NCBI RefSeq assembly: GCF_054482525.1
Contig: NZ_JBTHVG010000003.1
Origin: a plasmid
DNA: 64,000 bases
Strand: one strand, 5' to 3'
Shown here: positions 2,413 to 61,021 of the stretch, in pieces
How positions within the stretch are numbered: the stretch's first letter is position 1
Layout: each line of letters starts with the position of its first letter
The notes under the pieces: model-generated
Database searches by the model: none
What the model was told of the DNA's origin: nothing
What the model saw: only the letters and a program-made list of their open reading frames with translations
Made by a program: the position numbers and the translations under genes

Positions 2413-3749
2413 ATAAGCGCTAACTTAAGGGTTGAACCATCTGAAGAATGCGACGCCTCGGTGCCTCGTTAAGACGATGCCTCGCGTTCTTCAATTGCGT
2501 TTTGTAGGCTGTCAGGGATACTGTCCCACGAATGGCCACCTGTAAGCTCCAGATGACCATTTTTGTTATTCTCCACAACGAGTTAGTTCTTCTTTTCGGA
2601 TCCGGCACTTCTGGGGGGGAAATCCAGCGATGGCTGGATTATGTCGTCAATTAAAAATGCGGCGAGTAGATTAGCAAATATCCACGCTTTCGCGAGTTCA
2701 GGTTCCTTTGCACGCAAAGCATCCAGGTGCAGCAAACTTTTGAGCCGCTTAAAAGCCAGTTCAATTTGCCATCGCAGACGGTAACAATCAGCCACTTGCT
2801 CTGCTGAATATTCATCTTCCGGTAATGATGTTAGCAATAGCACATGGCCCGCTGCTTCCAGCGTTTCCGCCTGAACTACTCGTCCTTTTCGACGATTCTC
2901 GCTGAGCAGTCGGGTTTTACTGATTAATGCTTTTTCGGGAGGAAGTGATACGGCAATGAGACGTGCCGGAAAGGGAGCTCCGGCTTTTTTATTACCTGAA
3001 TTGCCTATCATTACAGTGGTTTCACCGTTCTTACCGCAATCCAGCCCGCGCAGAAAACCCATCATGTCAAAGCGCATTCCTTCTGCAGTTAACCAGCGCA
3101 ATCCTCGCCAGTGAACCCGGACGATATAATCAGCTTCTCCAAAAGCAAGTGAGCGGATACATTCGGGACGCGAACCGAATCCCCGGTCAGCAATGCGTAT
3201 CTCGTCTGCCGTTTGCGCAAATCGGTCCAGCCGTTCAGCGTCTCTGCTGTCGGTTAGCTCAAAATCAGTGAACTGACAGGTATGAGGATCATATCCCATA
3301 TGTAGTCGCCATTCAGCGCTGCCGCCCCCGGGCGCACTGATTGCTGTTCCATCGACAAGACGCAATCTCTTTCCGCTTGTACAACCCGTAACTGCGGCGC
3401 GTACAGCAAGTGTTTGTGCGGCAAGTATGCCAAACCAGTCGGCGGCATTCCGCAGCCGCTTCAGGAGAGCCACGTCAGATAATGTTGCAACGTCATGGAG
3501 CTGAGCCCATGCAGTGACTTCACGTAATGACATCCCCCCGGGGCCGTAAGCCAGCCCCAGACGTAGCAGAGTTGCAGCATCACGAATTTCGCGGCGGCGG
3601 GTTAGAGCCCCGGCATTACGTGCCGAAGTATCCAGTTCTTCGGGCTTACCAATATGGGCCAGAATTGCTGACCAGTTATCGTGAGAGTAATTCATCGGCA
3701 CGTTAAATCATATCAGGCGTAATACCACAACCCTTAAGTTAGCGCTTAT
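2413..3749 (-). mobile_element. IS186-like insertion sequence (IS4 family), about 1337 bp, with terminal inverted repeats ATAAGCGCTAACTTAAGGGTTG
   Basis: Perfect inverted repeats at 2413-2434 and 3728-3749 enclose one transposase ORF. The protein sequence matches my recollection of the E. coli IS186 transposase (MNYSHDNWSAILAHIGKPEE...). Flanked by a 12-bp direct repeat. Confidence 0.85.
2583..3701 (-). CDS. insL: IS186 transposase (DDE, IS4 family)
   Basis: 372-aa ORF filling the IS. Recognised from memory as IS186 InsL-like; the true start may be the third codon (MNYSH...). Confidence 0.85.
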   Translation of the reverse strand: MPMNYSHDNWSAILAHIGKPEELDTSARNAGALTRRREIRDAATLLRLGLAYGPGGMSLREVTAWAQLHDVATLSDVALLKRLRNAADWFGILAAQTLAVRAAVTGCTSGKRLRLVDGTAISAPGGGSAEWRLHMGYDPHTCQFTDFELTDSRDAERLDRFAQTADEIRIADRGFGSRPECIRSLAFGEADYIVRVHWRGLRWLTAEGMRFDMMGFLRGLDCGKNGETTVMIGNSGNKKAGAPFPARLIAVSLPPEKALISKTRLLSENRRKGRVVQAETLEAAGHVLLLTSLPEDEYSAEQVADCYRLRWQIELAFKRLKSLLHLDALRAKEPELAKAWIFANLLAAFLIDDIIQPSLDFPPRSAGSEKKN

Positions 3750-13379: not shown

Positions 13380-16300
13380 TTATCCAATTTGCTCACCGAA
13401 GACTTTTAACTTATTTAACCCCCTTTATCGCCAATCTGTGATTTTCTAATGTTAGCCTACAGTTCTAGGGCCCTTGCTCCCATGATGCGAATCCTTCCAC
13501 CTAATAAAGATTAACGCCTCATTCCTGTATGCCGGTCTTACGACGCCAGTGCACGGACAATTTTTGGTCATCACAAGGCCAGGCGGGAGATTTAATCAGG
13601 GCGTGGTGTTCCTTAGCAGCAGCTGCGGCACTGTAAGCCGAAGGCGGAATTAACTCCTTTATCGCCATCTGGGGACGTCATTAGGGGTACCCCTTTTAAC
13701 TTGCTCAGGACCATTAAGCTAAAATTCCGGATAGTGATTGACGTAAGATTTAGGCTAAGCAGGTAAAGTGATCCCCGCTCCCGGGGTGACCACTTTATAC
13801 AAAAGGCCGATCGGAAGATTGTCCTTAGGGAAATATTCCTTTAACACAGCACGGGCACTTACTGCCGCTGCCGGATTTAACCCCCTTAATCGCCAAACTG
13901 GGGTACTGTCCTGATGCTGGCCTTCAGTTCTGGGCTGGGTGGCTATCACTTCCTCCCATAATGCGAAATGTAACTGCTGATACAGATTAACGTCATATTC
14001 CTGCGTGCCGGTCTGCCAACACCAGTGCACGGGCTTTTTTCGGTCATCACATTACCGGGCAGGAGATTTTATCAGGGCGTGGTGTGACTGAGCAGAAGCT
14101 GGGGCACTGTCAGCAGCTTGCAGATTTAACCCCCTTAATCGCCAAACTGGGATTCTGGTCTGATATTGACCTTCCGTGCTGGGCGGGGTTCGGTTTGCTA
14201 ACACTTACTCCCATGATACGAAATGTGCCTGCTGATACAGATTAAAATCACATTACTGCATACCGGTCTGCCGACACCGGTGCATGGGCGATTTCCGACG
14301 ATCTCAAGAACATATGGGAGATTATATCAGGGAGAGTAGTATGCCTGAGCAGCATCTGAAGGCACTGTCAGCCGCTGTCAGATTTAACCCCCTTAATCGC
14401 CAAACTGGTGTTCTGTCCTCATGCAGGCCTTCAGTTCTGAGCTGGGTTGCTATCACTTGCTCCCATAATGCGAAATGTACCTGCTGATACAAATTAACGT
14501 CGTATTCCTGTATGCCGGTCTGCCGACACCAGTGCTCGGGCTATTTTCGGTCCTAACAAGACCTGGCGAGAGATTTAATCAGGGCGTGGTGTGACTGAGC
14601 AGCAGCTGGGGCACTGTTATCCGCTTGCAGATTTAACCCCCTTAATCGCCACACTGGGGTTCAGTCCTGATAGTGTCCTTCCGTCCTGGGCTCGGTTGCT
14701 AACACTTGCTCCCATTGCGCCTGCTGATACAGATTAAAGTCACATTACTGCATACCGATCTGCCGACTCCGGTGCATGGCTTTTTCCGATAATCACAAGG
14801 ACGGACGGGTGATTTTATCGTTGCATAGTATGTCTGAGCAGCATCAGAAGGCTCTGTCAGCCACTGGCAGATTTAACCCCCTTAATCTCCAAACTGGGAT
14901 CAGTCCTGATAGTGTCCTTCCGTCCTGGGCAGGGTTGCTAACACTTGCTCCCATGATACGAAATGCGCCAGCTGATACAGATTAACGTCTCATTACTCCA
15001 TGCCGGTCTGCCGAAACTGGTGCATAGCTTTTTTCGATATTCGCATGAACAGACGCTTGATTTTTTCAGGTTGTAATATACCTGAGCAGCATCTGAAGGC
15101 ACTTTCAGTCGCTGTCAGATTTAACCCCCTTAATCGCCAATCTGGGATTTTCTGATGTTAACCTACAGTTCAAGGCCCTTGCTCCCATGATGCGAACCTT
15201 GCAACCTGATAAAGATTTAAGCTTCATTCCTGTATGCCGGTCTTACGACTCTAGTGCACGGGGACTATTTTCGGTCATAATAAGACCTGGCGGGAGATTT
15301 AATCAGGCGTGGTGTGACTGAGCAGAAGCTGGGGCACTGTCAGCCGCTGGCAGATTAAAACCCTTTATTCGCCATCTCAAGACGTCATTATGGGTAGTCC
15401 TTTTAACTTTCTAAGGACCATTAAGCTTAAACTCCGTTTAGAGAATGACGTAAGATTTAGGCTAAGCAGGTTAAGTGATCCCCGCTCCCGGGTTGAACAC
15501 TTTATTCATCGTACGAGCGAAAGATTGTCCTTCGGGAAATATTTCTTATACACCGCTCGGGCACTTACAGCCACTGGCGGATTTAACCCCCTTAATCGCC
15601 AAACTGGGGTACTGTCCTGATGCTGGCCTTCAGTTCTGGGCTGGGTGGCTATCACTTGCTCCCCTAATGCGAAATGTGTCTGTTAATACAGATTAACGTC
15701 ATTTTCCTGCGTGCCGGTCTGCCGACACCAGTGCACGGCCTTTTTTCGGTCATTACATTACCGGGCAGGAGATTTTATCAGGGCGTGGTGTTACTGAGCA
15801 GGAGCTGGGGCACTATCAGCAGCTTGCATATTTAACTCCCTTAATCGCCAAACTGGTGTTCTGTCCTCATGCTGGCCTTCAGTTCTGGGCTGGGTTGCCA
15901 TCTCTTGCTCCCATAATGCGAAATGTATCTGCTGATACAGATTAACGTCATATTCCTGTATGCCGGTCTGCCGACACCAGTGCTTTGGCTATTTTCGGTC
16001 ATAACAAGACCTGGCGAGAGATTTACTCAGGGCGTGGTGTGACTGAGCAGCAGCTGGGGCACTGTCATCCGCTTGCAAATTTAACCCCCTTAATCGCCAA
16101 ACTTGGGTTTTGTCCTGATGCTGGCCTTCCGTTCTGGGCGGGGTTGCTATCACTTGCTCCCATCATGCGAAAAGTGCCTGCTGATACAGATTAACGTCAT
16201 ATTCCTTCATGCCGGTCTGCCGACACCAGTGCTTTGGCTATTTTCGGTCATAACAAGACCTGGCGAGAGATTTACTCAGGGCGTGGTGTGACTGAGCAGC

Positions 16301-16700
16301 AGCTGGGGCACTGTCATCCGCTTGCAAATTTAACCCCCTTAATCGCCAAACTTGGGTTTTGTCCTGATGCTGGCCTTCCGTTCTGGGCGGGGTTGCTATC
16401 ACTTGCTCCCATCATGCGAAAAGTGCCTGCTGATACAGATTAACGTCATATTCCTTCATGCCGGTCTGCCGACACAAATGCACGGGCTTTTTTCGGTCCT
16501 TACAATACCGGGCAGGAGATTTAATCAGGGCGTGGTGTGACTGAGCAGCAGCTAGGACACTGTCAGCCGCTGGCAGATTTAACCCCCTTAATCGCCACAC
16601 TGGGGTTGCCTCCTGAAGTTGGGTTTCAGTTCTGGGCTAGGTTGCTAACTCTGCTCCCATAATTCGTAGTGGGCCTACTCAAGAGATTAACACCTCATAT
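13380..16700. repeat. Tandem direct-repeat array, about 14 units of about 221-259 bp (mostly 249 bp), with higher-order periodicity of about 1.7 kb
   Basis: Recurring block ...CAGATTTAACCCCCTTAATCGCCAAACTGG...GCTCCCATAATGCGAAATG...CTGCTGATACAGATTAACGTCATATTCCTG...GCCGGTCTGCCGACACCAGTGCACGG...GATTTAATCAGGGCGTGGTGTGACTGAGCAGCAGCTGGGGCACTGTCAG. Two adjacent units are identical (identical 69-aa track ORFs at 15985 and 16234, 249 bp apart). Segment 13400-13870 recurs at 15120-15580. Confidence 0.9.
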
Positions 16701-49887: not shown

Positions 49888-50766
49888 ATGAAGTTAGCTA
49901 CGGACCTGGTAAAAGCTATTTTGATTAGAAATGGCGTTGAACCAGTAAATATAAGCGAATCATCTAAGTTATCTTTGAAACAACCACTGACAGAACTTAA
50001 ATTCAGTTTATATTTGCGAACTGAGCATTTATCTCACTTCCTACCCGGTTATGTTTATTCTATAAAAGAATGTCCACTGTCATATGACATCGGGATCGAA
50101 ATTCAGAAAATCTTCGAAAGTTTACATTTGTTAAACGAAGAATTTGAATCCCTCGGTTTTGTTTCTGTATGGATAGAAATGCATCAAAGCATTTTTGAAC
50201 AAAGTCGGTTTAAGAAAAGTAACTTTACTTTTCGGGAGGAAGAGGTCGAGCTTGCTAAAGGGCTTGTTTGTTCTCACAATTCACAAATAAGTAATGCGGC
50301 TTATTTCTGGCTTCAGCACTTTGAGGAGTTTATGATTTATGTTCGTAATAAGCTTATCGACCTCTTTCGAGAGGCCTATGACCTGATCCTTGGAATGCAG
50401 CAAGTATTTTTCATTCGGGAAAAGGAAGAGCTGTTGAAAACTATAAGTTATGGCGATGAGCTGTATGAGGTGAAATTCATGGCGGCTGAGCTTTACTCTA
50501 TCGAACAGAACTTAAAGTGTTCTGAATCGATAAGTACAAAATCTCAAGCTTCGGCATATATTAACCGCATCCGTGAGTTTGTGCGTTCGGGGTGGAGGCA
50601 GGGCTATATAGTCTGCCATCATAAGCGAAGTAATCAAATTTCATCATTGTCATTACCGATGTACTTGAAAGATACGTCAGGCCGAAGTGCTCGAAAGCGA
50701 GTAAAACGTCTTATATCTTCTACAGTTTGTGGTAGAAATAAAGATTTAGGTCTTACAGATTTTTAA
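49888..50766 (+). CDS. Hypothetical protein, paralogue 1 of a five-gene tandem family
   Basis: 292 aa. N-terminal pattern (MKLATDLVKAILIRNGVEP...) shared with the next four ORFs. Confidence 0.4.
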   Translation: MKLATDLVKAILIRNGVEPVNISESSKLSLKQPLTELKFSLYLRTEHLSHFLPGYVYSIKECPLSYDIGIEIQKIFESLHLLNEEFESLGFVSVWIEMHQSIFEQSRFKKSNFTFREEEVELAKGLVCSHNSQISNAAYFWLQHFEEFMIYVRNKLIDLFREAYDLILGMQQVFFIREKEELLKTISYGDELYEVKFMAAELYSIEQNLKCSESISTKSQASAYINRIREFVRSGWRQGYIVCHHKRSNQISSLSLPMYLKDTSGRSARKRVKRLISSTVCGRNKDLGLTDF

Positions 50767-50776
50767 TTAAATTATA

Positions 50777-50820
50777 CCCATGTGGGGATCACACCCCATA
50801 TGGGAGTGATCCCTTTTTTT
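50777..50820. repeat. Conserved palindromic intergenic element / putative terminator
   Basis: cccatgtggggatcacaccccatatgggagtgatcccttttttt. Confidence 0.6.
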
Positions 50821-50836
50821 ATTGAGAGAGGATCAC

Positions 50837-51772
50837 ATGAAAATTATCGAAAAAATCATTAATGCCTTTTTGGTTGTTCAACATAAAAAAATACAGGTTA
50901 AAAACATTACATTTTTAGACAATGGGCAGGGCATGTTCTCTGGTATGTCTTTTGATGCTGATGTTTCACTGGAGTTTATGTATGAATCAGCAAAAGCATA
51001 TAGTTCTTGTTTCTGTGATATTCCCTTTCCAGGTTTTGAAGATGCAAATCTGGAGGAAATTACGAAATTTCAATTAGATGCTTTGAAGCAAAGAAAGAAT
51101 CATTCTTTCTTTGTTAACCATTTGAGGTTTCCTATAGTTTTAAGGGAAGGGTGCAAAATCGAAAGAGGAGAAGTCTATTCAATTTCGAATTGCACTTATA
51201 ATAAAGAAAGATTGCAGTATCTTTTTTCTCAGGATATTTACGGTAAGTTGTATAATTCCTTAGAGAAAGAATTAAGCTCGTTTTTCTCATTTATCAATGT
51301 TGAGGTGCACGAGTTGTTAAAAGATGCTGTATGCTTTGCATTAAAAATCCTGAATAAGATATCTTTGGATACACCTGAAAGACTTATTAAAGCTTTTAAT
51401 TATCGTGACTGGTATTGTAGTTACGATGTTGAGCTTTTTAGGAAAGGCTTACCTGGTCATATTCTGGAAGAGCTCATTGCTCCAGATATCTTACTTTCAG
51501 ACCTTAACGGTTGTAGAAAAATACTTAGAAATGCAAAACGATTTCTAAATGGACATACACAAACCAATTGTGTTTATATTAAATATGAATGGTGGTTGGG
51601 GCCTGTTGATACCTCACACTCAGCTAAGTTGATGTCTGACAAAGAAATTAATAACCGAAGTGACTTGAAGAATTTTTCAAAGGTCTTTTTCAAAGAGTGT
51701 TTAAGTTCTGGTAAGTCGGAATATGAAAACCATCTTAGTGAAAAAGAACATGCGCTTCGCTATAATTATTAA
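50837..51772 (+). CDS. Hypothetical protein, paralogue 2 of the tandem family
   Basis: 311 aa; ATG at 50837 after GAGAGAGGA; N-terminus MKIIEKIINAFLVVQ... Confidence 0.4.
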   Translation: MKIIEKIINAFLVVQHKKIQVKNITFLDNGQGMFSGMSFDADVSLEFMYESAKAYSSCFCDIPFPGFEDANLEEITKFQLDALKQRKNHSFFVNHLRFPIVLREGCKIERGEVYSISNCTYNKERLQYLFSQDIYGKLYNSLEKELSSFFSFINVEVHELLKDAVCFALKILNKISLDTPERLIKAFNYRDWYCSYDVELFRKGLPGHILEELIAPDILLSDLNGCRKILRNAKRFLNGHTQTNCVYIKYEWWLGPVDTSHSAKLMSDKEINNRSDLKNFSKVFFKECLSSGKSEYENHLSEKEHALRYNY

Positions 51773-51783
51773 TTAAAATTATT

Positions 51784-51823
51784 TTCTCCCATAGGGATTT
51801 CTCCCTATGGGAGAAATCCCTCT
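51784..51823. repeat. Conserved palindromic intergenic element (GGGATTTCTCCC / GGGAGAAATCCC arms)
   Basis: ttctcccatagggatttctccctatgggagaaatccctc. Perfect 12-bp arms with a 3-nt loop; same arms as the element at 41645-41690. Confidence 0.65.
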
Positions 51824-51840
51824 ATTAAGAGGGTATTGAA

Positions 51841-52761
51841 ATGAATGCTATACAAAAGTTAGTTGAATCTATTCTTGTTAAAATGGGTTTTGTTGGCGCT
51901 GTAGTGGAAAATATATATTTGGATTCAAAACCATTTCGGCATATTCGATTTGTGGCTGATATTCCAGTAATATCTTTTCTACCTCATTTGGTGAAATATC
52001 TTAAGGGTGCAGACCATCTTTACAGTGGTAACGATGATTTGCATCCTCTTTTCATTTATTTTTCCGAAGCGGCTACATTAAAAGCAGGTCCTGTAAATCT
52101 CGCGAACTTTCGTTTTGAAGTTTCTATAGCTTCAACTCATTTACGACTGGTCTCAGAGCAGCCTGATTTGCTTTTCAAAGGATTTAACCGGGATAATCTA
52201 GAATACGTTTATTACCGCTCAGATTTGGCCTCTAAGGATCTTATACTAGGCCTTGTTGAACACGGTTCTCCTTTCATAAAACATCTACATGGACTTATAC
52301 AAAAGCGAATTTTAAACGAGTTCTCTCTGATTTTTTCTGTTCTTGAAAAGATTTTAGAAAGCGCGAAGCCACAAATTCTTGCTTGCTTCCATAGTGTTGA
52401 TTATGAAATGAACGTAAAAATAATAGCCGAAGCTATACCTGAAACTGTATCTAATCAGATAGTCACATCTGATTATATAGTTAATTCTATATCAGATGCG
52501 GACAAGTTTATAAATCATGTTCGTCGCTATTTAGCAGGCAGGGTAATGAAGAGGCGGATATACGCTGAATTAGATGTTTGTGAAGAAACATCAAGTATTT
52601 CACTAGTGAACTTAGGATGCTTTACGTCTCCTCTGCTCGTTACGGAATATCAAATGTTTAAGCCACACTCTTCAGGGTTATATCGAAAAGCTATAAACAA
52701 CTCCTTAAAACAGTTCAAACCAGAAATGCATGTACCTTCTGAAGAACTCTTTTATAATTAA
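51841..52761 (+). CDS. Hypothetical protein, paralogue 3 of the tandem family
   Basis: 306 aa; N-terminus MNAIQKLVESILVKMGF... Confidence 0.4.
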   Translation: MNAIQKLVESILVKMGFVGAVVENIYLDSKPFRHIRFVADIPVISFLPHLVKYLKGADHLYSGNDDLHPLFIYFSEAATLKAGPVNLANFRFEVSIASTHLRLVSEQPDLLFKGFNRDNLEYVYYRSDLASKDLILGLVEHGSPFIKHLHGLIQKRILNEFSLIFSVLEKILESAKPQILACFHSVDYEMNVKIIAEAIPETVSNQIVTSDYIVNSISDADKFINHVRRYLAGRVMKRRIYAELDVCEETSSISLVNLGCFTSPLLVTEYQMFKPHSSGLYRKAINNSLKQFKPEMHVPSEELFYN

Positions 52762-52766
52762 TCTAA

Positions 52767-52810
52767 CCCATCCGGGAACCTGCTTCCCGGTGGGAAGCAC
52801 TTCCTTTTTA
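52767..52810. repeat. Conserved palindromic intergenic element
   Basis: cccatccgggaacctgcttcccggtgggaagcacttccttttta. Preceded by ATCTAACCCA, as is the element at 53879. Confidence 0.55.
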
Positions 52811-52827
52811 GTCATGAGGTAGTGTAA

Positions 52828-53766
52828 ATGTTTAAAGAATCTGACCACGTGGAATTTGTTAGTGCCTTTCTTTATCAAAATTTAGGCCTTAATGTTTCCG
52901 CTGACGATATAACCGTTCAATTATCTGATACTTCGTTCGACAAAGTAACCTTTGATTACGATGTAGATATCGATAATTTAAATTGTATGTTGGATCTCTA
53001 CATATCTGAGCTAATAAAGCACAACGCATCTTACTCCGATTCTATTCTTTTGAAACAAAAAATAATTTATTTTCTTGGAGTATTTAAGAATTTCGGATTT
53101 TTTACGTTTGATATTCGCGGATATAGTAATACTTTAAGCCCAGTTAAAGTTATTGATATTGTTTCAATGATTATTAATGACTGTGAAGAGTTATCTAAAG
53201 CTAATTCTTCTACTGATGCTATAAGAAATCTTTATCTCGATAAAATGAAGGTGGATGGGAAAGTGTTAGTTGCGAAATTTGCACTTAAACAGTTTTTTCA
53301 TTCCGACTTTGGTGACTTTATCTCATTTGTCGAGAAAAGAATTACAGATTGTCTTAATGAAACTTTAAGGATTATCAAAGCTGTTGAACATGGCTTTGTA
53401 CGTGTAGGGCAGCATAAGATTAATCGCCGTATTAATGATGACTTAAAGTTATGCATTGATTTCAATACTGATGATTATCCGGCAAATATGCCAGATATAT
53501 ATATTAAGTTTAACGATACATTTGATGGGAACGGGGCGTTATATTGTGACAATGATGCCCTCATATCCCTCTATACCGATGTTGCTTCAATTATCAATGT
53601 GCCGGTGATGATGGAAGTAAGATTGATCAATAAAAGAGGGCGTGTTGTCTGTGATTCTTCGCATTCAACTTACGTATCTCTCGAAAGTAATGACCGATAC
53701 AGAGTAACTGATCGCACATTACTAATAACTGAAGCTTTTGACGATTTTCGTAACGCGTCTCAATGA
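52828..53766 (+). CDS. Hypothetical protein, paralogue 4 of the tandem family
   Basis: 312 aa. Clearly paralogous to the next ORF (VDGKVLVAKFALKQFFHSDF versus VDGQVMIARFALQQFWDTHF; C-terminal DRTLLITEAFDDFRN versus DRNDLVSEVFDNLRN). Confidence 0.45.
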   Translation: MFKESDHVEFVSAFLYQNLGLNVSADDITVQLSDTSFDKVTFDYDVDIDNLNCMLDLYISELIKHNASYSDSILLKQKIIYFLGVFKNFGFFTFDIRGYSNTLSPVKVIDIVSMIINDCEELSKANSSTDAIRNLYLDKMKVDGKVLVAKFALKQFFHSDFGDFISFVEKRITDCLNETLRIIKAVEHGFVRVGQHKINRRINDDLKLCIDFNTDDYPANMPDIYIKFNDTFDGNGALYCDNDALISLYTDVASIINVPVMMEVRLINKRGRVVCDSSHSTYVSLESNDRYRVTDRTLLITEAFDDFRNASQ

Positions 53767-53878
53767 TCCTTTTGCTTCAGTCCAAAAAAGTAACTTTGGT
53801 TGGCTGAAGACACTTGTCTATGACAATGTAAAATCTGTCGCTGGCATCTTCTTTTAGCTTAACCAAATTTTTATCTAA

Positions 53879-53919
53879 CCCAGTGGGGAAGTCGCTTCCC
53901 TTCTGGGGCACTTCCTCTC
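53879..53919. repeat. Conserved palindromic intergenic element
   Basis: cccagtggggaagtcgcttcccttctggggcacttcctctc. Downstream ribosome-binding context GAGGTAGTGTA is shared with the 52828 gene. Confidence 0.55.
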
Positions 53920-53931
53920 AAATTCGAGGTA

Positions 53932-54894
53932 GTGTATATGACACATTCATCTGATGATAAAAACTATGTCCGAGCAGTTCTGAGTTATCTTGGCATAGAT
54001 TTTGATGAGGCGGATATAGTATTAAGTGTTTGCCATTGTCAAAGTGACGAGCTTTCTTTTACCTGTAATATCAAAGCTATTGAACTCAAGAATGTTGTTG
54101 ATTTATATGTCGATAGTATCTCTGAGAATGAAATAGAAGCTTTAAACAGAGAATCTTTAAAATCGCGACTCTGTTACTTTCTTGAGGTGTTTGACGCAGT
54201 CTCTGGTCAGTACCTTGAAATTTCAGGAAAACACTTTGCAACTAGTCGTTTTGAATATGATGATGTTTGTAGTGAAGTTCTTAGCATGTCTAATGATGTT
54301 TCTCAGTCGAAAGGTTATGACCGGGATGAATATAACAGACTGATGCAGGTTGATGGTCAGGTTATGATTGCCCGTTTTGCTTTGCAACAGTTCTGGGATA
54401 CTCATTTTATTGGACTAATAACATTTGTATCTGAGTCTATAACATCGAGCCTCTATAAAGCTTATGAAACTTTTAGTGATATTAGTTTGGCTTGCTATAA
54501 ACTGAGTGAATATTCTTATTCACGCTCTATCAACAGTGAATTGACCCTTAATATTTCACTTAAAGAAAATGACTTCTGTGAGGACCTATCTGATTGCTAT
54601 ATGGAAGATGAGGCTTTACCTTCTGGTAGGGTAATTTCTCGACGCAACAATGACTCCATAATAAGTATTTATGAGAGCTATGCTGCGGCTTCTTATATTC
54701 CGATGATTGCATCTTTGGAAGTCGTTGATGAATACGGCGAAGTGGTTACTGACCTCTGCCATACCGTTTATGTTTCAGAGTTAACCGGTGGGCGGATTAA
54801 AATCCACGACCGTAATGACTTAGTATCTGAAGTTTTCGATAACCTAAGAAATTTAAATCTTGCAGTTGGAGATTCAGTTTCACAAGCTGCTTGA
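53932..54894 (+). CDS. Hypothetical protein, paralogue 5 of the tandem family
   Basis: 320 aa; paralogous to the 52828 ORF. Confidence 0.45.
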   Translation: MYMTHSSDDKNYVRAVLSYLGIDFDEADIVLSVCHCQSDELSFTCNIKAIELKNVVDLYVDSISENEIEALNRESLKSRLCYFLEVFDAVSGQYLEISGKHFATSRFEYDDVCSEVLSMSNDVSQSKGYDRDEYNRLMQVDGQVMIARFALQQFWDTHFIGLITFVSESITSSLYKAYETFSDISLACYKLSEYSYSRSINSELTLNISLKENDFCEDLSDCYMEDEALPSGRVISRRNNDSIISIYESYAAASYIPMIASLEVVDEYGEVVTDLCHTVYVSELTGGRIKIHDRNDLVSEVFDNLRNLNLAVGDSVSQAA

Positions 54895-55157
54895 TTCTTT
54901 CCCTGATTTTGATTTTTTCTCACATACTCTTATGGCACGGTTTCCGTGCCTTTTTTTTGCCTCGCTTACAAGCGTCTACTCCTCTTCTACCTATCCCACC
55001 TTACATCACCACTTAAAATCTATCTTTCTAATTCCATTATCCTTTTCGTAGCCTCTAATGCTCTGGTATGAACATACTCTTTAAACTCAAAAAAGTGCTA
55101 TTAACGAAAAAAAATCCCTAAAGAGATTTGTATACTGTTCTCAACCAAGGAGAGCTC

Positions 55158-55433
55158 ATGAATGAACTAAAATCCAAAAACGAGAACAGTACCAAAAGCA
55201 ACTTTCCCCCGGTTGATAATCAGTTTTGCTTTTACCATGTTGATTTCAGCATAGAACGACTACTTTCTACGGCCGAGGATCTCCAGCTTGAGTACATCTT
55301 CCAGAAACCTGGAAGTGAAGTAAGAAAGGATTTGGTTGAGCGATTCGAACGTGGAGAGCGCTTTGTTACAGCTTCACACTGTGACAATTTCTGTGAAATC
55401 CTTGGTTGTCAAGGCCATCAGGAAAATGCATAA
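55158..55433 (+). CDS. Hypothetical small protein
   Basis: About 91 aa from the ATG at 55158, with an AAGGAG ribosome-binding site. Confidence 0.3.
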   Translation: MNELKSKNENSTKSNFPPVDNQFCFYHVDFSIERLLSTAEDLQLEYIFQKPGSEVRKDLVERFERGERFVTASHCDNFCEILGCQGHQENA

Positions 55434-55477
55434 ACCCATAAACCTACATTTCCACTTTTAAGGATGTTCACTAAAGA

Positions 55478-56068
55478 ATGATTGGAGAAAGTATTTTTGA
55501 CTGGGTAATTTACGGAATATCCATTTTGATATTTGCCTCAGCACTAATTGAAGGAAAGACAACTCGCTACCCAGCACTTTTTTTCTATGGGAGTTTAATT
55601 TTAATGTTAATCCTGATAGTTGCTGGAGGCCTTAACTGGTGGTTCTACAGGTCAAAATATGGCGCAGTAATCGTTATCTTCACAGTGGTTTCTTTACTGA
55701 TGACTCGATTCCGCCTGGTCATATATAAATTAAGATTAAGAAAGTTAGTTTCAGAGATCAGATTTCGTATAAAAACGGGTTTTCGTATAATTCTTGTTTT
55801 GTCGGATAATGAGGATGAGCGTAATGTTCTGCTGTCTATGCTTAGCAACGTATTGCCAGAGCAAACGCTTATTCACACGCGTGATGCTCTCGGACCTCAT
55901 TCAGGGCCTATCCTAAAAGCTCTTGAGCTACATCATCAACAGGGAACAGGTTACATACTCGTCTGTGAACAACAAATCTCAGCGCGTACGTGGTTGAGTA
56001 TCGTAGAAAATGGGAAACCTGATACATCTATAGCTGTTAATTTTCATTCGATCCCAGAAATGGAGTGA
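55478..56068 (+). CDS. Hypothetical membrane protein
   Basis: 196 aa, hydrophobic N-terminal segments then a soluble C-terminal domain. Confidence 0.35.
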   Translation: MIGESIFDWVIYGISILIFASALIEGKTTRYPALFFYGSLILMLILIVAGGLNWWFYRSKYGAVIVIFTVVSLLMTRFRLVIYKLRLRKLVSEIRFRIKTGFRIILVLSDNEDERNVLLSMLSNVLPEQTLIHTRDALGPHSGPILKALELHHQQGTGYILVCEQQISARTWLSIVENGKPDTSIAVNFHSIPEME

Positions 56069-56075
56069 TTTTTCA

Positions 56076-56333
56076 ATGAGTAGAACCGTTTCACAAAGTG
56101 TCACAGAAGATTGTCTTTTTGATACCCGCACACAAGTCAGATTACAACTAAGTCGAAGCGTTCATAAAACGCTGGCATCTGCTAAAGAAATTTTACAGGG
56201 AAGGGGGGTTGATTCGGTCTCTATTGAAGATCTTGTGCGAGCCTGTCTTGAAGAGAACCAGCCAATTGATCTCGCCTCACTTTACCTTGAAAATCTCTTA
56301 AAACAGAAAGGTACCAGCATTTGCGATTTTTAG
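56076..56333 (+). CDS. Hypothetical small protein
   Basis: 85-aa ORF tightly following the previous gene. Confidence 0.3.
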   Translation: MSRTVSQSVTEDCLFDTRTQVRLQLSRSVHKTLASAKEILQGRGVDSVSIEDLVRACLEENQPIDLASLYLENLLKQKGTSICDF

Positions 56334-56406
56334 TGTTTTCAAACCTATTAGATAAAATGCCGGTTGTGTTTATATAACATCAATAATTTCATGCAACAGG
56401 TAAAAC

Positions 56407-56943
56407 ATGAGTACTCAAAAGCAACTTTCCAGAACAACCGGCACTGAACGTATGTTTAAGGAAGAGCTGGCGTTATCCTTAATTTGTTGGGTTTTCACCA
56501 GTCCATTTACCAACTGGACCGATAAAGTCTTCAGTGGTATTGAAGTTCCGTCTGAAGGACCGTCAACATTACTGGGTGAGGCTGAAAAATTCTTTCGTTT
56601 TGTCGTTAATGAAGAAGGCTACGACGCAGGAAGGGCTGCTCTTGGTCTTGACCTATGTTGTTTTTCACTTCCGTCGTGTTTGTTCCCGGACGCTGCCCTG
56701 TCTGAGGAAGAGGTTATGAGTAAGTTAACCGGAGAAGTTATCCATGGGATTCTTCTTTCCTTACCTGAATTTATTGATATGCCAGAAGTGCTCGCTTACC
56801 AGGTCAGGGATGAAATTCTTGCTTTTAACACTCGCTGTGGAGACGGGATCTTTCATGGTTGGAACACGGCTTCAGAATTGTGGAAGTTTGAAATCTTTCC
56901 CCGCACCACCATCATGATGCAGCATACTTCGGCAATACATTAA
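56407..56943 (+). CDS. Hypothetical protein
   Basis: 178-aa ORF. Confidence 0.35.
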   Translation: MSTQKQLSRTTGTERMFKEELALSLICWVFTSPFTNWTDKVFSGIEVPSEGPSTLLGEAEKFFRFVVNEEGYDAGRAALGLDLCCFSLPSCLFPDAALSEEEVMSKLTGEVIHGILLSLPEFIDMPEVLAYQVRDEILAFNTRCGDGIFHGWNTASELWKFEIFPRTTIMMQHTSAIH

Positions 56944-56959
56944 AATTAGGCGGGGCAGA

Positions 56960-57406
56960 ATGCATAAAAAACTTTTTCTTCTCGAATGGAAACCCTGTCA
57001 GAGCCGCGTATGGGCCGGTTGGATGGCCCTGTGGTTGACTATCAGTTTTCTGATGTTATCTGCCTTGCTTATGACAGATCATCTCCTGAACAAAGTCATC
57101 CTGCCGCCAACATGGTTGTTGATCTGGTTTTCGCCAATGCTGGGGTTTTTGATAAAAGTTCGCGTCGTCGAAACTCAACATTTCCTGGAGCATGACCTCT
57201 GTGTTGCAGGTTTCTCTTTTTACCGCTGGAAGAGGTTAGTTTCTCCCGGGCTTTGGTCAGTTGACTGTATAAATGGTCGTTTTCGCCTCAATCGGATCAC
57301 CCAGGTGGGTAAGACTATCCACTATCCATGGCGTCTCCATTATCATCCTTTGTTCATGAGCCCTATCGAACATAAATCGCATGCTGTGAAAGCTGTTTCA
57401 AAATGA
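56960..57406 (+). CDS. Hypothetical membrane protein
   Basis: 148 aa with two hydrophobic segments. Confidence 0.3.
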   Translation: MHKKLFLLEWKPCQSRVWAGWMALWLTISFLMLSALLMTDHLLNKVILPPTWLLIWFSPMLGFLIKVRVVETQHFLEHDLCVAGFSFYRWKRLVSPGLWSVDCINGRFRLNRITQVGKTIHYPWRLHYHPLFMSPIEHKSHAVKAVSK

Positions 57407-57478
57407 CTTCTTTAGAGGTTTACATGACATTTATGTTCTGCAAGGTCAGCCAGGGCAGCAAAATTGATTTGAAATAAC

Positions 57479-58459
57479 ATGAGCCTGGAGAAACGTATGA
57501 GTTATGACGATTTGCCCTATTTTCGTGACCAGATTCTGGAACGTATCGACTCGCTTAAGTGTTTTCTTTCGAACACCCCCCCGCTGATGGCAAACCTGAT
57601 GACTGTCTCCACCGTATCTCGAACAGAAGAGCGACTGAAGCAGGTTAAACCCATCAGGGTTAGTGTTAAAGACGATGCTTCGGTTGAGGAAATTATTCAG
57701 GCACTTACTGACATCTGTGTGGATGACATAGAGTCATTAAGTCATGATTCCACCAAAGTGACCACTAAATACCCGGGTCTTATCATTGTCCCAGAAAGAG
57801 CAGATCTTCTCGAAAGCTTGATCACATCTATAAATGAAGCAAAAAATGATTTTGCTGCGGCAATGAGGCGTATCGATAATAAAAAGAATGTCCGTTTTGA
57901 TAAAGTGCACAAGAAGCTCCCGGGCCTTGTCGCTATGCACTCAACAAGAAATGTCCTTTTCATCAAGTCCCAGCTTAAAAAAGTTACTTTTTCATGGCGG
58001 CTAAACCGAAACCAGGAAGTTAAAACAGCAGAGCAACTTGTGAGTTTGTTGGAGCGCAGGAGAGCCTCAGAAGTAAAAAATGTAGCAACTACCAATTTGA
58101 ATGTCGTGTCTAATATCGATAAGGCTTTACACCGTCTTGAATTTCACCCACTGAAGCAGGGCGAATCTTATCGCCTTTGTCGAACTAACTCTTTCCCTGT
58201 TCCGATTGCTCACATTTTTGCATTTAGGCCTGAAGGCCAGGAACGAAACGGGAATAAATATGCTGAGACTGATTATTCAGTAGTAAAAGCATCCTTGCCC
58301 ATTTTCGCAGCAGGCAACATACCTCAATTAAAAACGCTCTCTGACTGGGCTCCTGAAAACAGCCAGGGCCCGTCCAACCAACGGAAGCTGAGCCTGAAAT
58401 ATACAGAACTCGTGCCGGGGGCTGAGCTGGGCATTTTCATTGTCAGCCCCGAAAATTAA
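57479..58459 (+). CDS. Tus-like protein (replication terminus site-binding protein homologue)
   Basis: 326 aa. By-eye alignment to E. coli Tus in its signature region (FDKVHKKLPGLVAMHSTRNV versus [20 protein letters not shown]; FSW versus FGW). Similar length to Tus (309 aa). Confidence 0.45.
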   Translation: MSLEKRMSYDDLPYFRDQILERIDSLKCFLSNTPPLMANLMTVSTVSRTEERLKQVKPIRVSVKDDASVEEIIQALTDICVDDIESLSHDSTKVTTKYPGLIIVPERADLLESLITSINEAKNDFAAAMRRIDNKKNVRFDKVHKKLPGLVAMHSTRNVLFIKSQLKKVTFSWRLNRNQEVKTAEQLVSLLERRRASEVKNVATTNLNVVSNIDKALHRLEFHPLKQGESYRLCRTNSFPVPIAHIFAFRPEGQERNGNKYAETDYSVVKASLPIFAAGNIPQLKTLSDWAPENSQGPSNQRKLSLKYTELVPGAELGIFIVSPEN

Positions 58460-58468
58460 GGAACAACA

Positions 58469-59374
58469 ATGCAATGGATTTCCACAGCCAGCCAGAAAAT
58501 CGATGAGCGTCTCTATCGTGTCTGCGTCTGGGTAAAAAAATATCACGCTGATGCGATTAACCGCGTTGTGCTTACCGTTGATCTAAGTAAAGCCCGACAT
58601 GACCCTGACGAGGACCAGGTAAGAGCAGAGCTGCTGTGCGGCCATTATTTTTTGCTTCGTAAGGAAAACGCTTCGAACTCTGCGCCTGACGATCAAAAGT
58701 TTGCTTTCCTGCCTGACGGGCGCAATCTGTGTTGGCAGACCGCAACCCCGGTGCTTCAGCATCTCCTGCTCAATAAAAACGTTCCTGAGTCGCTGAGGTT
58801 GCTTACGGACTACATACATATGCGTCTGGCCAGGCTGACAATGGTACCAATGTCCGGAACCATCATGAACGAGGCTCTGCTGGACAGCATCAGCTGGGTT
58901 AAGGTGGATTTGACCTACTTCTGGCAGTACGAACAGCTCAGCTCTCATCTGGGACCCATCCAGATAACCCACAAGGCACTAGTACGCTTCGGGCATCTGG
59001 CAAAGAATGATGAAAACTCCAGTGCCATAAGAATCCTGCGTCAGCGTCTGTCTTCAGAATTCTTACAAGAATTTCAGATGGCTGAGGATGAGCTAAAGCG
59101 CAAACAGTCGTTGATGGGCACCATGGACGTGAAAATGCTGTTTCATGCTCATTACCCCAGCCAGAAGATGCTGGTGGCTCGATATAAAAATGGTTGGGTA
59201 ATGGTGGATTGTTTTCTGTTTCATCATACCAAACCTAAGAAAAAAGCAAAAAACAAAACTACTGTGGCTAAGCCTCAACTTAAAGAGACTAAAAGAGAAG
59301 GGAGTGAAAATGGAACTGGGCATTATGGTGTGCATCGTGTTGTTACTCTCCGTGGCGGCGGCGTGGATCAGTAA
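58469..59374 (+). CDS. Hypothetical protein
   Basis: 301-aa ORF with a lysine-rich C-terminal tail. Confidence 0.35.
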   Translation: MQWISTASQKIDERLYRVCVWVKKYHADAINRVVLTVDLSKARHDPDEDQVRAELLCGHYFLLRKENASNSAPDDQKFAFLPDGRNLCWQTATPVLQHLLLNKNVPESLRLLTDYIHMRLARLTMVPMSGTIMNEALLDSISWVKVDLTYFWQYEQLSSHLGPIQITHKALVRFGHLAKNDENSSAIRILRQRLSSEFLQEFQMAEDELKRKQSLMGTMDVKMLFHAHYPSQKMLVARYKNGWVMVDCFLFHHTKPKKKAKNKTTVAKPQLKETKREGSENGTGHYGVHRVVTLRGGGVDQ

Positions 59375-59654
59375 TAAGACAGTTGATTTGCTCGAAAGAT
59401 TCTATTTCAAGCGTCCGCTGAGCATGGAGTACGCGGCATGGCTACGTGTAATGTGTGCAGGCTTGTTATTGGTTTTTATTCAGGTTGCTCCACAATTTAC
59501 ACTTCTGTATACCCTTAAACTTGTCACGCTTATTAATCTTGGAATCCAGACAATGAAATTAAATGGCGTGTACAAATATAAAAGAACGGGAATTTTGCCT
59601 CCGGGAGGGGCACTCTCTAATCTCACCAGACTTAACCCGTTCAAGAAAAAATAA
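59310..59654 (+). CDS. Hypothetical small membrane protein
   Basis: About 114 aa from the ATG at 59310 (GGGAG ribosome-binding site); two hydrophobic segments; overlaps the end of the previous ORF. Confidence 0.3.
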   Translation: MELGIMVCIVLLLSVAAAWISNKTVDLLERFYFKRPLSMEYAAWLRVMCAGLLLVFIQVAPQFTLLYTLKLVTLINLGIQTMKLNGVYKYKRTGILPPGGALSNLTRLNPFKKK

Positions 59655-59675: not shown

Positions 59676-60860
59676 CTATTCATCAAAGGCATTTCGCATA
59701 AGCTTGATCATTGCTTTTTTACCAGCTTCAATATTACGAATGTAGCGCATAACCATTTCTTCATTCGACCAGTTCCCCATTTCCATAATCTGTGGTAGCG
59801 AGTAACCTTCAATATTTAGCTGTATCGCTCCGCCTACACGAACGCTGTGCCCTGTCCAGTAACGAGTTTTAGTCTCATTTGGATAAAGCTCATTCCACAT
59901 CTCTTTAAATGCTCGTAAAAGGGAATTTTTGCTGAGCATACCGGCATCGTCCACAGTGTCTTCTTCATCTTCATCGTTCAGAAGACTTTGCTTAGCACGA
60001 TAGGGTAGGTTATGCCTTTTAAGAAGTTCAGATAGCTCATTCCCCTTACTCCGAAGCTTCCAGCCGGGTGGCATATAGCCTGTATCATGGAAATTTACGG
60101 CCTGGAAAAGGAATTCATCCGGATGACTGTGCTGATCCATTTTCACGAGGTTCATCAATCTCAAGAGGCAGTTAGTTAACTGACGTGTCAGCCGGTAGGT
60201 AAGAAGTGTACTAATGTTCGTTTTTGTACGGTATACCGTCAGGTTAAATTCACCGGTCATACTATCCAGAGACAGATCTTTCAGACGTATACGTCGAATT
60301 TCGGATGAACGGAGCAGTGTTTCAAAGCCTGTCCAGATCAGGCACAGGTCACGAAGTTTACGAACTGAGTTTGTAGTACTGCGTAACTTTATCAGAGCCT
60401 TGAGATCGCCAATAAGAAAGGGAGTTGCCTGTTTAGTCGTCTTTCGCTTCCGGGCTTCCGATTGTTTTAAGGCTTCCAGCATGTACCATGCTTCAGACGT
60501 AATAATCCCGGGCAGGTTAAGCCCTTTTTTATGGATACTATTTAAGGCCTGAAGACAGCTGTTTATGCTGCTTCGTGACAATTTGCCTTCAAGATGCCCC
60601 ATAAACGCAAGCAGAGCGTCCTCAGACACGGGGAGCGAACTTACTGGCCAGTCTGTATGCAACCGGGCATTCGCCAGATACCATTCGTTCCATACTCGTA
60701 GCCAGTGCAGATAGGTTTTAGCAGTGTTGTATCTCAGATGGGAAAAGTAACGGATCAAGCGTGAAAGCTGTTTATCATGGTTGCCGAACGTTTCCAGCTG
60801 CTGATGCAATTCGCTTTCCGAAAACTGTCTGATCACTGATTGATTCTTCATCCTGCTCAC
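59676..60860 (-). CDS. Tyrosine site-specific recombinase (phage-integrase / XerC-D-like family)
   Basis: 394 aa. C-terminal catalytic region with a conserved His-x-x-Arg (HSVRVGGA) and a terminal Tyr (MRYIRN). N-terminal SAM-like core-binding region. Confidence 0.75.
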   Translation of the reverse strand: MSRMKNQSVIRQFSESELHQQLETFGNHDKQLSRLIRYFSHLRYNTAKTYLHWLRVWNEWYLANARLHTDWPVSSLPVSEDALLAFMGHLEGKLSRSSINSCLQALNSIHKKGLNLPGIITSEAWYMLEALKQSEARKRKTTKQATPFLIGDLKALIKLRSTTNSVRKLRDLCLIWTGFETLLRSSEIRRIRLKDLSLDSMTGEFNLTVYRTKTNISTLLTYRLTRQLTNCLLRLMNLVKMDQHSHPDEFLFQAVNFHDTGYMPPGWKLRSKGNELSELLKRHNLPYRAKQSLLNDEDEEDTVDDAGMLSKNSLLRAFKEMWNELYPNETKTRYWTGHSVRVGGAIQLNIEGYSLPQIMEMGNWSNEEMVMRYIRNIEAGKKAMIKLMRNAFDE

Positions 60861-61021
60861 CGGGATACACTGGTTTTAATTACAGGTCATTTTAGCACTC
60901 ATGTACCTGGTTATGAACAGGGTGGAAACAACGAAAAAGGTTGTGAAATCGTTAGGCTTAAGTGAAAAATGATATTAAGATTATCCTTGGCCAGTTGAGG
61001 CCTGTCTAAAGAAGGTTGATT

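Follow-up and report, generated by a model that had tools for sequence, protein, structure and literature searches.

A strongly diverged Tus-family protein of IncHI plasmids, with an apparently retained cytosine-lock pocket and no conserved canonical Ter sites

The 64,000-nucleotide stretch analysed here (contig NZ_JBTHVG010000003.1 of assembly GCF_054482525.1, as a whole called the window) makes up the first 64 kb of an R478-like IncHI2 plasmid and carries on its plus strand a homologue of tus, the gene for the replication-terminus protein Tus of Escherichia coli. The original prediction, made from the letters of the window, had described the gene as plasmid-encoded and the product as similar to Tus in sequence and length. 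The plasmid location holds, as collinearity with IncHI2 plasmids begins at base 1 of the window. Over the first 25 kb the window follows the beginning of IncHI2 records and differs from R478 by an IS421-type insertion. An intact open reading frame (ORF) for 326 amino acids spans exactly 57479-58459 (plus strand). The true start of the gene is likely the ATG at 57497 (57497-58459, 320 amino acids) and not the upstream in-frame ATG at 57479, because the former is preceded at a distance of six bases by GGAG (57487-57490) and is used by the Prokaryotic Genome Annotation Pipeline (PGAP; WP_000119427.1, 'DNA replication terminus site-binding protein'), whereas the latter lacks a Shine-Dalgarno sequence. 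With 320-326 amino acids against 309 for E. coli Tus, the length is indeed similar.

The likeness to Tus was borne out by family profiles. The Pfam model Ter (PF05472) matched the ORF with E=6.5e-19 (68.5 bits) over residues 20-217 (model positions 10-208 of 296), a precomputed PF05472 match was present in all close homologues of the plasmid protein, and the NCBIfam model NF002810 matched with E=2.6e-14. Judged by the NCBIfam cutoffs, the plasmid protein is a member of the family and not an equivalog of chromosomal Tus (53.1 bits for NF002810 against an equivalog cutoff of 323 bits, and 20.9 bits for TIGR02648 against a cutoff of 178.3). When 1.84 billion representative proteins were searched with a profile made from 13 close relatives, the result was a small Tus superfamily of 191 clusters, which is continuous up to chromosomal Tus and in which several distant members align end to end. 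A family alignment of 104 members was made, including E. coli Tus (its sequence checked to be identical to 1ECR_A), in which the plasmid protein and E. coli Tus share 16.9% identity.

An AlphaFold2 model predicted from the 104-member alignment (predicted local distance difference test, pLDDT, 94.1; predicted template-modelling score, pTM, 0.88) had significant Foldseek matches in the PDB to Tus entries only (E=9e-20; TMq 0.75 and TMt 0.78 over about 326 aligned columns, at 16% identity). The predicted fold has two alpha+beta domains with interdomain beta-strands over its full length. Since the fold match spans the full length, the C-terminal domain, missed by the hidden Markov models, is according to the model therefore Tus-like too. 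Profiles and predicted fold together confirm that the ORF encodes a real, full-length and very diverged Tus-family protein. One could suppose instead that an unrelated ORF shares a short chance motif with Tus, and a direct phmmer comparison with 1ECR is indeed weak (E=0.084 over the 88 residues 89-176, the same 'signature region' on which the original prediction was based), but profile matches that extend over about 200 residues with E-values of 1e-14 to 1e-19, a fold match over the full length and a continuous family that reaches chromosomal Tus refute this explanation, which we regard as practically excluded.

In E. coli Tus, the residues I79, F140, H144 and G149 reportedly form the pocket for the flipped base C(6) (Mulcair et al. 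2006), and we take their positions in the family alignment to be the cytosine-lock pocket. In the plasmid protein these positions hold V, F, H and G (V75, F134, H138 and G143 in the numbering of the 320-residue protein); the F, H and G do not vary among the 10 sequences of the IncHI clade, and the first position is V or I. The equivalents of E49, K89, R139 and R232 are conserved as well, and H144 (91 of 104 sequences) and E49 (85 of 104) are among the best conserved columns of the family. Confirmation of the roles of individual pocket residues was not found in the open literature. From the alignment, the lock apparatus of the plasmid protein appears to be retained.

The surface that would read the DNA tells another story. 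At eight positions of the interdomain strands that we take to be base-reading in E. coli Tus, the plasmid protein carries other residues (A173 to R, K175 to N, I177 to N, R198 to V, V234 to N, Q237 to V, Q250 to R and Q252 to V), and its sequence specificity has probably changed relative to that of E. coli Tus. The original prediction had also suggested interference with host termination; this is unlikely on the same alignment, because the presumed base-reading positions differ from those of E. coli Tus.

Ter sites were searched for in the window, in the whole of R478 (274,762 bp) and in the whole of R27 (180,461 bp), each with shuffled controls, by means of the exact core GTTGTAAC, a degenerate 16-mer with at most three mismatches and a 23-bp position weight matrix (PWM) built from TerA-J. 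The window contained the exact core twice against 1.6 expected, both times with flanks unlike Ter, and four matches to the degenerate 16-mer against 2.6 expected. In R27 the best PWM score was 15.3, with shuffles at 13.6 +/- 2.9, and no site rose above chance. The sole notable PWM site in R478 was GATATTTAAGTTGTAACTAATAT at 188981(+) (NC_005211 188981-189003), which is identical to E. coli TerJ at positions 8-21, whereas positions 5 and 6 are both T. The site is located within an AT-rich intergenic spacer of 590 bp in Tra1, about 30 kb past the maximum of the GC skew. Its score of 17.6 is inside the range of the shuffles (14.9 +/- 2.7, maximum 21.7), and it is kept within IncHI2; the syntenic place in IncHI1 holds the only loosely similar TTTTGTAGTTAAC, and at the syntenic IncHI1 or IncHI1A position conservation was not convincing.

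These scans indicate that canonical Ter sites are not a conserved feature of IncHI replicons, and the changed base-reading positions fit their absence. Of the two findings that the original prediction had named as speaking against it, a similarity confined to a chance motif and a replicon without Ter-like sites, the first was thus not obtained and the second was, as far as conserved canonical sites are concerned. Fork arrest at sites of the GTTGTAAC type, as originally suggested, is therefore not supported, with the window at chance, no site in R27 and one in R478 with A·T at position 6. That the plasmid protein nevertheless acts at E. coli-type Ter sites on the plasmid or on the host chromosome, or disturbs host termination, we consider quite improbable. 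The R478 site would be oriented so as to block a clockwise fork, its positions 8-21 are those of TerJ, and a 'potential ter site' was named together with tus in the published annotation of the IncHI2 plasmid pSTM6-275 (PMC5923156). Against this stand the score and the poor IncHI1 counterpart of the site, the lack of sites in R27 and the window, the eight changed residues and the pair at position 6: it is documented that the mousetrap mechanism depends on the G·C(6) pair (PMC4499146, PMC8707476), and E. coli Tus no longer brings about permanent arrest once G·C(6) is replaced by A·T (PMC4499146).

The tus homologue is the sixth of eight ORFs that form a unit at 55,128-59,654. An intrinsic terminator-like hairpin at 54934-54960 (plus strand; stem GGCACGG/CCGTGCC, loop TTT, followed by T8), which is kept in R27 (R478 53330-53354), closes a preceding array of paralogues, and the tus unit therefore starts after it. 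The first five ORFs of the unit (55128-57406, plus strand) are small (101, 196, 85, 178 and 148 amino acids), have no known domains and no match in NCBIfam or PHROGs, and their order is kept in IncHI1, Photorhabdus and Lelliottia loci. Directly downstream of tus, with a gap of 9 nt in the window and a 4-nt start/stop overlap in distant lineages, lies a partner ORF (58469-59374, plus strand, 301 amino acids) with a predicted RNase H-like fold and a disordered basic tail, in which the acidic residues E48, D49 and E155 hardly vary; it gave no sequence-family match in Pfam, NCBIfam, PHROGs, PADLOC or the PDB sequences and is unrelated to the upstream paralogue family. The last ORF of the unit (59304-59654, plus strand, a PGAP coding sequence) encodes a predicted membrane-like protein of 114-116 amino acids and follows the partner gene in all lineages.

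The wider gene order is conserved too: genes for DUF3150, VWA and toprim proteins, the paralogues of about 300 amino acids, the small ORFs, tus, an ORF of 260-301 and one of 106-116 amino acids are followed by a tyrosine recombinase gene on the opposite strand, hha and a CoiA-like gene. This order recurred in IncHI1, a Photorhabdus contig, a Lelliottia plasmid and lineages whose Tus is only 36%, 24% and 21% identical. IncHI2 lacks an ORF of about 202 amino acids (with a weak match to DUF2913 in one lineage) that overlaps the start of tus in all other lineages. A 16-nt inverted repeat (57368-57383 and 57423-57438, 88% complementary and 39 nt apart) straddles the end of the 148-amino-acid ORF and the tus leader, the place where the ORF of about 202 amino acids is absent in IncHI2. 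The array upstream of the unit (49888-54894) consists of five tandem paralogous ORFs of about 290-320 amino acids without a known domain; their number and order are kept in IncHI1 and Lelliottia, and there are fewer copies in distant lineages.

The recombinase gene (59676-60860, minus strand) encodes a protein with a tyrosine recombinase catalytic domain (Phage_integrase PF00589, E=8.7e-12), a SAM-like N-terminal domain and a match to the integrase family phrog_1. Similarity at the level of XerC/XerD was not reached (17.1 bits for the XerC model TIGR02224, with a cutoff of 335). According to the original prediction, tus lies in an operon of unknown genes upstream of this recombinase, the whole possibly being a module for termination and dimer resolution. 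The run of unknown genes and the recombinase neighbour are there, and their synteny with tus is conserved; the gene converges on the tus unit from the opposite strand (the gene ends are 59654 and 59676) and is a conserved neighbour, not an operon partner, of tus. The neighbourhood is conserved as such, but no experiment or site links the recombinase to dimer resolution, and a single functional module is not supported. The spacer between the recombinase gene and hha contains a block of about 34 bp, ATACACTGGTTTTAATTACAGGTCATTTTAGCACT (60865-60899), that is conserved across four lineages, is 91% identical between R478 and R27 in an otherwise diverged spacer and has weak dyad symmetry; it may be a promoter/operator or a recombination site.

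The position of tus on the replicon was considered as well. In R478 the initiator genes are located at 1-876 and 260,265-261,353 and tus at 55,875-56,855; in the window a RepHI2A-type initiator gene is likewise found at 1-876 by homology to IncHI2 plasmids. An ORF for an IS4-family (IS421-type) transposase in the origin-proximal spacer (2583-3701, minus strand) is extra relative to R478, and this insertion accounts for the coordinate offset of 1349 bp between the window and R478. The cumulative GC skew of R478 is lowest at about 160 bp and highest at about 159 kb. In R27 the minimum over the plasmid body lies at about 60-70 kb, near RepHI1B, and the interior maximum at about 140-160 kb (in 10-kb steps), within roughly 10-20 kb of tus at 162 kb. 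The results for the two plasmids are inconsistent, and skew on mosaic plasmids follows gene orientation and acquired accessory DNA; GC skew was rejected as a locator of the terminus. Only about 4.4 kb from tus, R27 also carries an inserted IS1-flanked RepFIA (repE) replicon (NC_002305 156848-157603), which separates hha from the CoiA-like gene. In the window, tus is near the end of an array of about 40 kb of co-oriented genes (about 22-59.6 kb) that continues from Tra2, and the orientation flips at 59,654/59,676.

The reading we prefer, which in our judgement has an even chance of being right, is that the plasmid Tus is a polar fork barrier that works by the same cytosine-flip 'mousetrap' as E. 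coli Tus at a target differing from the E. coli Ter core. The IncHI2 protein would bind one or a few sites on the plasmid as a monomer and, once bound, would act as a polar barrier to the replicative helicase. Such a barrier might serve to control where or in which direction the forks of the IncHI replicons travel, independently of the host Tus, and the RNase H-like partner may work together with it. How multi-replicon IncHI plasmids of 200-300 kb finish replication is a question on which this protein may bear.

Several observations weigh against this reading. No candidate cognate site was found on these replicons: the 72-90 bp upstream of tus contain nothing Ter-like, unlike the situation of TerB in E. 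coli (in other lineages an upstream ORF overlaps the tus start), alignments of the regions upstream of tus and of the recombinase-hha spacer from four lineages showed nothing Ter-like either, and among the short non-coding stretches that R478 shares with R27 there were par repeats, oriT repeats, terminators, origin iterons, the 34-bp block and the palindrome described below, but no Ter-like footprint. In R478, tus does not appear to lie opposite the replicons, being 56 kb from RepHI2A on a circle of 275 kb, with the skew maximum at about 159 kb. Its conserved coupling to an RNase H-like protein, an arrangement without parallel in the E. coli system, could be a sign of another activity. The residue roles are presumed ones, and at 17% identity the C-terminal domain cannot be aligned with certainty. 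Finally, the fold match is not fully independent, AlphaFold2 having been trained on 1ECR and E. coli Tus being part of the alignment.

Some of these observations would suit another function, in which the Tus fold serves DNA transfer or establishment and not vegetative replication: with the RNase H-like partner and the products of the toprim, VWA and DUF3150 genes further upstream, the protein might block a helicase or RNA polymerase on transferred DNA, regulate transcription or act as a roadblock to it. The location in a long co-oriented array contiguous with Tra2 and downstream of a toprim-domain gene, the invariable coupling to the RNase H-like-fold protein and the apparently non-antipodal position relative to the origins are all compatible with it. 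The conserved lock-pocket positions, however, suggest strand separation by a helicase as the trigger, for which replication forks are the best fit, and no PADLOC or PHROG family matches the neighbours. We hold this alternative to be possible, though rather doubtful.

The search for short sequences that R478 and R27 have in common outside long ORFs also brought up the 11-bp palindrome AAAGTNACTTT, usually in the form of the 13-bp palindrome AAAAGT[A/T]ACTTTT. It is the sole strongly enriched palindrome of its class, is more than 100-fold over-represented (19 copies against 0.12 expected in the window, 54 against 0.38 in R478 and 46 against 0.30 in R27) and is rare in the accessory DNA of R478. 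The copies in the window start at 987, 1772, 6174, 8483, 20149, 22223, 25189, 25383, 27032, 29276, 30459, 32823, 39346, 40025, 46471, 50216, 53787, 57980 and 61425, and about half of them are intergenic or at gene starts. Of the R478 copies that could be aligned to R27, 24 out of 26 are perfectly kept in flanks of 65-85% identity, where about one would be expected by chance. In architecture and density (about one copy every 5 kb) the palindromes resemble operator networks, for example that of the KorB sites in IncP plasmids. A literature search found no paper that mentions the motif. The palindromes may belong to a global DNA-binding system of the IncHI backbone that has not been described before, and they are a more surprising result than tus itself.

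One copy (57980-57990) is located inside tus, in the codons for K-V-T-F, and the homologous codons of six lineages (AAA GTN ACT TTY) use synonymous forms compatible with the motif. In addition, AAAGTNACTTT with N=A contains GTAACT, which equals positions 13-18 of the Ter core. It might therefore be proposed that the IncHI Tus reads the roughly 50 conserved palindromes and acts plasmid-wide rather than at a terminus, as the strong enrichment and the conservation between R478 and R27 would also allow. This proposal seems to us very improbable. Tus is a monomer on asymmetric sites, whereas this motif is a perfect, fully symmetric palindrome, which suggests a dimeric reader; where position 6 of Ter would fall, there is no conserved G/C; some 50 barriers would obstruct replication; and the copy within tus encodes an invariant beta-strand, so that protein constraint could explain it. 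Moreover, the motif does not co-vary with Tus in diverged lineages, which makes a link unlikely: in a lineage with a 24% identical Tus the palindrome is unchanged (five copies against 0.05 expected), although the DNA-binding strand of Tus has changed from SWRLNRNQ to YWHVPQVT, and a lineage with a 21% identical Tus has the homologue and no copies of the palindrome.

As a finding, the gene is already known, because it is annotated as Tus in thousands of records and has been mentioned in the literature, and the novelty implied in the original prediction falls away. A tblastn search of PLSDB gave Tus homologues in 2770 of 72556 plasmids, nearly all named 'DNA replication terminus site-binding protein', with about 1130 near-identical ones (IncHI2), one group at about 59% identity (IncHI1) and about 1600, mostly on Klebsiella plasmids, at about 25% identity. 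The tus gene, which belongs to the backbone of IncHI2 resistance plasmids, is identical in more than 1000 plasmids, and over the 6.5 kb around it hundreds of plasmids from Escherichia, Salmonella, Enterobacter and Klebsiella show 100% identity. Plasmid-borne 'mobile' tus genes were described by Galli et al. 2019 (PMC6549158), who proposed that chromosomal tus was domesticated from plasmids, a proposal discussed further in PMC10331603. The mobile tus genes and the tus of pSTM6-275 belong to the same gene class as the ORF studied here; neither of these reports (PMC6549158, PMC5923156) tests the gene biochemically or genetically, gives a target site or describes the conserved operon or the partner, and our literature search found no experimental study of an IncHI Tus protein.

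The gene is kept intact and syntenic in IncHI2, IncHI1, Photorhabdus, Lelliottia plasmids and Klebsiella-type relatives down to 21% identity, and we conclude from this retention that it has been under long-term selection. Natural insertions do not argue for dispensability, as they strike the neighbouring ORF or a spacer and leave tus intact. In other IncHI2 plasmids, the 3' end of the 301-amino-acid ORF (window about 59340-59375) is interrupted by an ISApl1-mcr-1-pap2 cassette and by an IS21-family element, and the spacer between the recombinase gene and hha by an IS10-like element. A cluster of 214-amino-acid 'truncated Tus' sequences was not used as a natural disruption, since it stems from a frameshift, close to which the same assembly has a second broken ORF, and is probably a sequencing error. 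IncHI plasmids are major carriers of mcr-1 and of genes for extended-spectrum beta-lactamases and metal resistance.

Compared with E. coli Tus (1ECR/2I06; PF05472, TIGR02648/NF002810), the plasmid protein shares the family profile, the predicted two-domain fold, a similar size and the conserved residues named above, and differs in its low identity of about 17%, its score far below the equivalog cutoff and its changes at the presumed base-reading positions. Unlike E. coli tus, the plasmid gene has no adjoining Ter site and no conserved GTTGTAAC-type Ter on its replicon, and it is plasmid-borne, part of an operon and coupled to a gene for an RNase H-like protein. Plasmids R6K and R1/R100 carry Ter sites that work with the Tus protein of the host and are a precedent for plasmid Tus-Ter barriers. 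They combine canonical Ter sites with the host protein, whereas the IncHI plasmids have their own diverged protein and no conserved canonical sites; R1 is mentioned in PMC10331603. The secondary chromosome of Pseudoalteromonas, a plasmid-derived replicon, also has a Tus homologue. There, tus is next to the origin, which suggests enforced unidirectional replication, and the ter site was only inferred (PMC6549158, PMC10331603); here, about 56 kb separate tus from the nearest initiator gene.

In its most far-reaching form, our preferred reading would make the IncHI locus a self-contained fork-control system, with a diverged Tus that keeps the mousetrap, a new Ter and an obligatory RNase H-like partner, ancestral to the chromosomal Tus-Ter system (or, in a variant, with the AAAGTNACTTT palindromes as its targets). 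We think that this is unlikely. Should the plasmid Tus have its own Ter specificity, it could provide an orthogonal Tus-Ter pair as a fork-barrier tool and, with the partner, a handle on the proposed domestication of chromosomal Tus-Ter from plasmids.

A further repeat was observed in the window between a TraC-family gene and parA, where twelve copies of the 21-bp sequence ATTTAACCCCCTTAATCGCCA occur at 13413-16597, about 249 bp apart. The repeat is also found in R27, at a spacing of about 52 bp, and the array presumably represents the partition or incompatibility repeats of the Par1 module.

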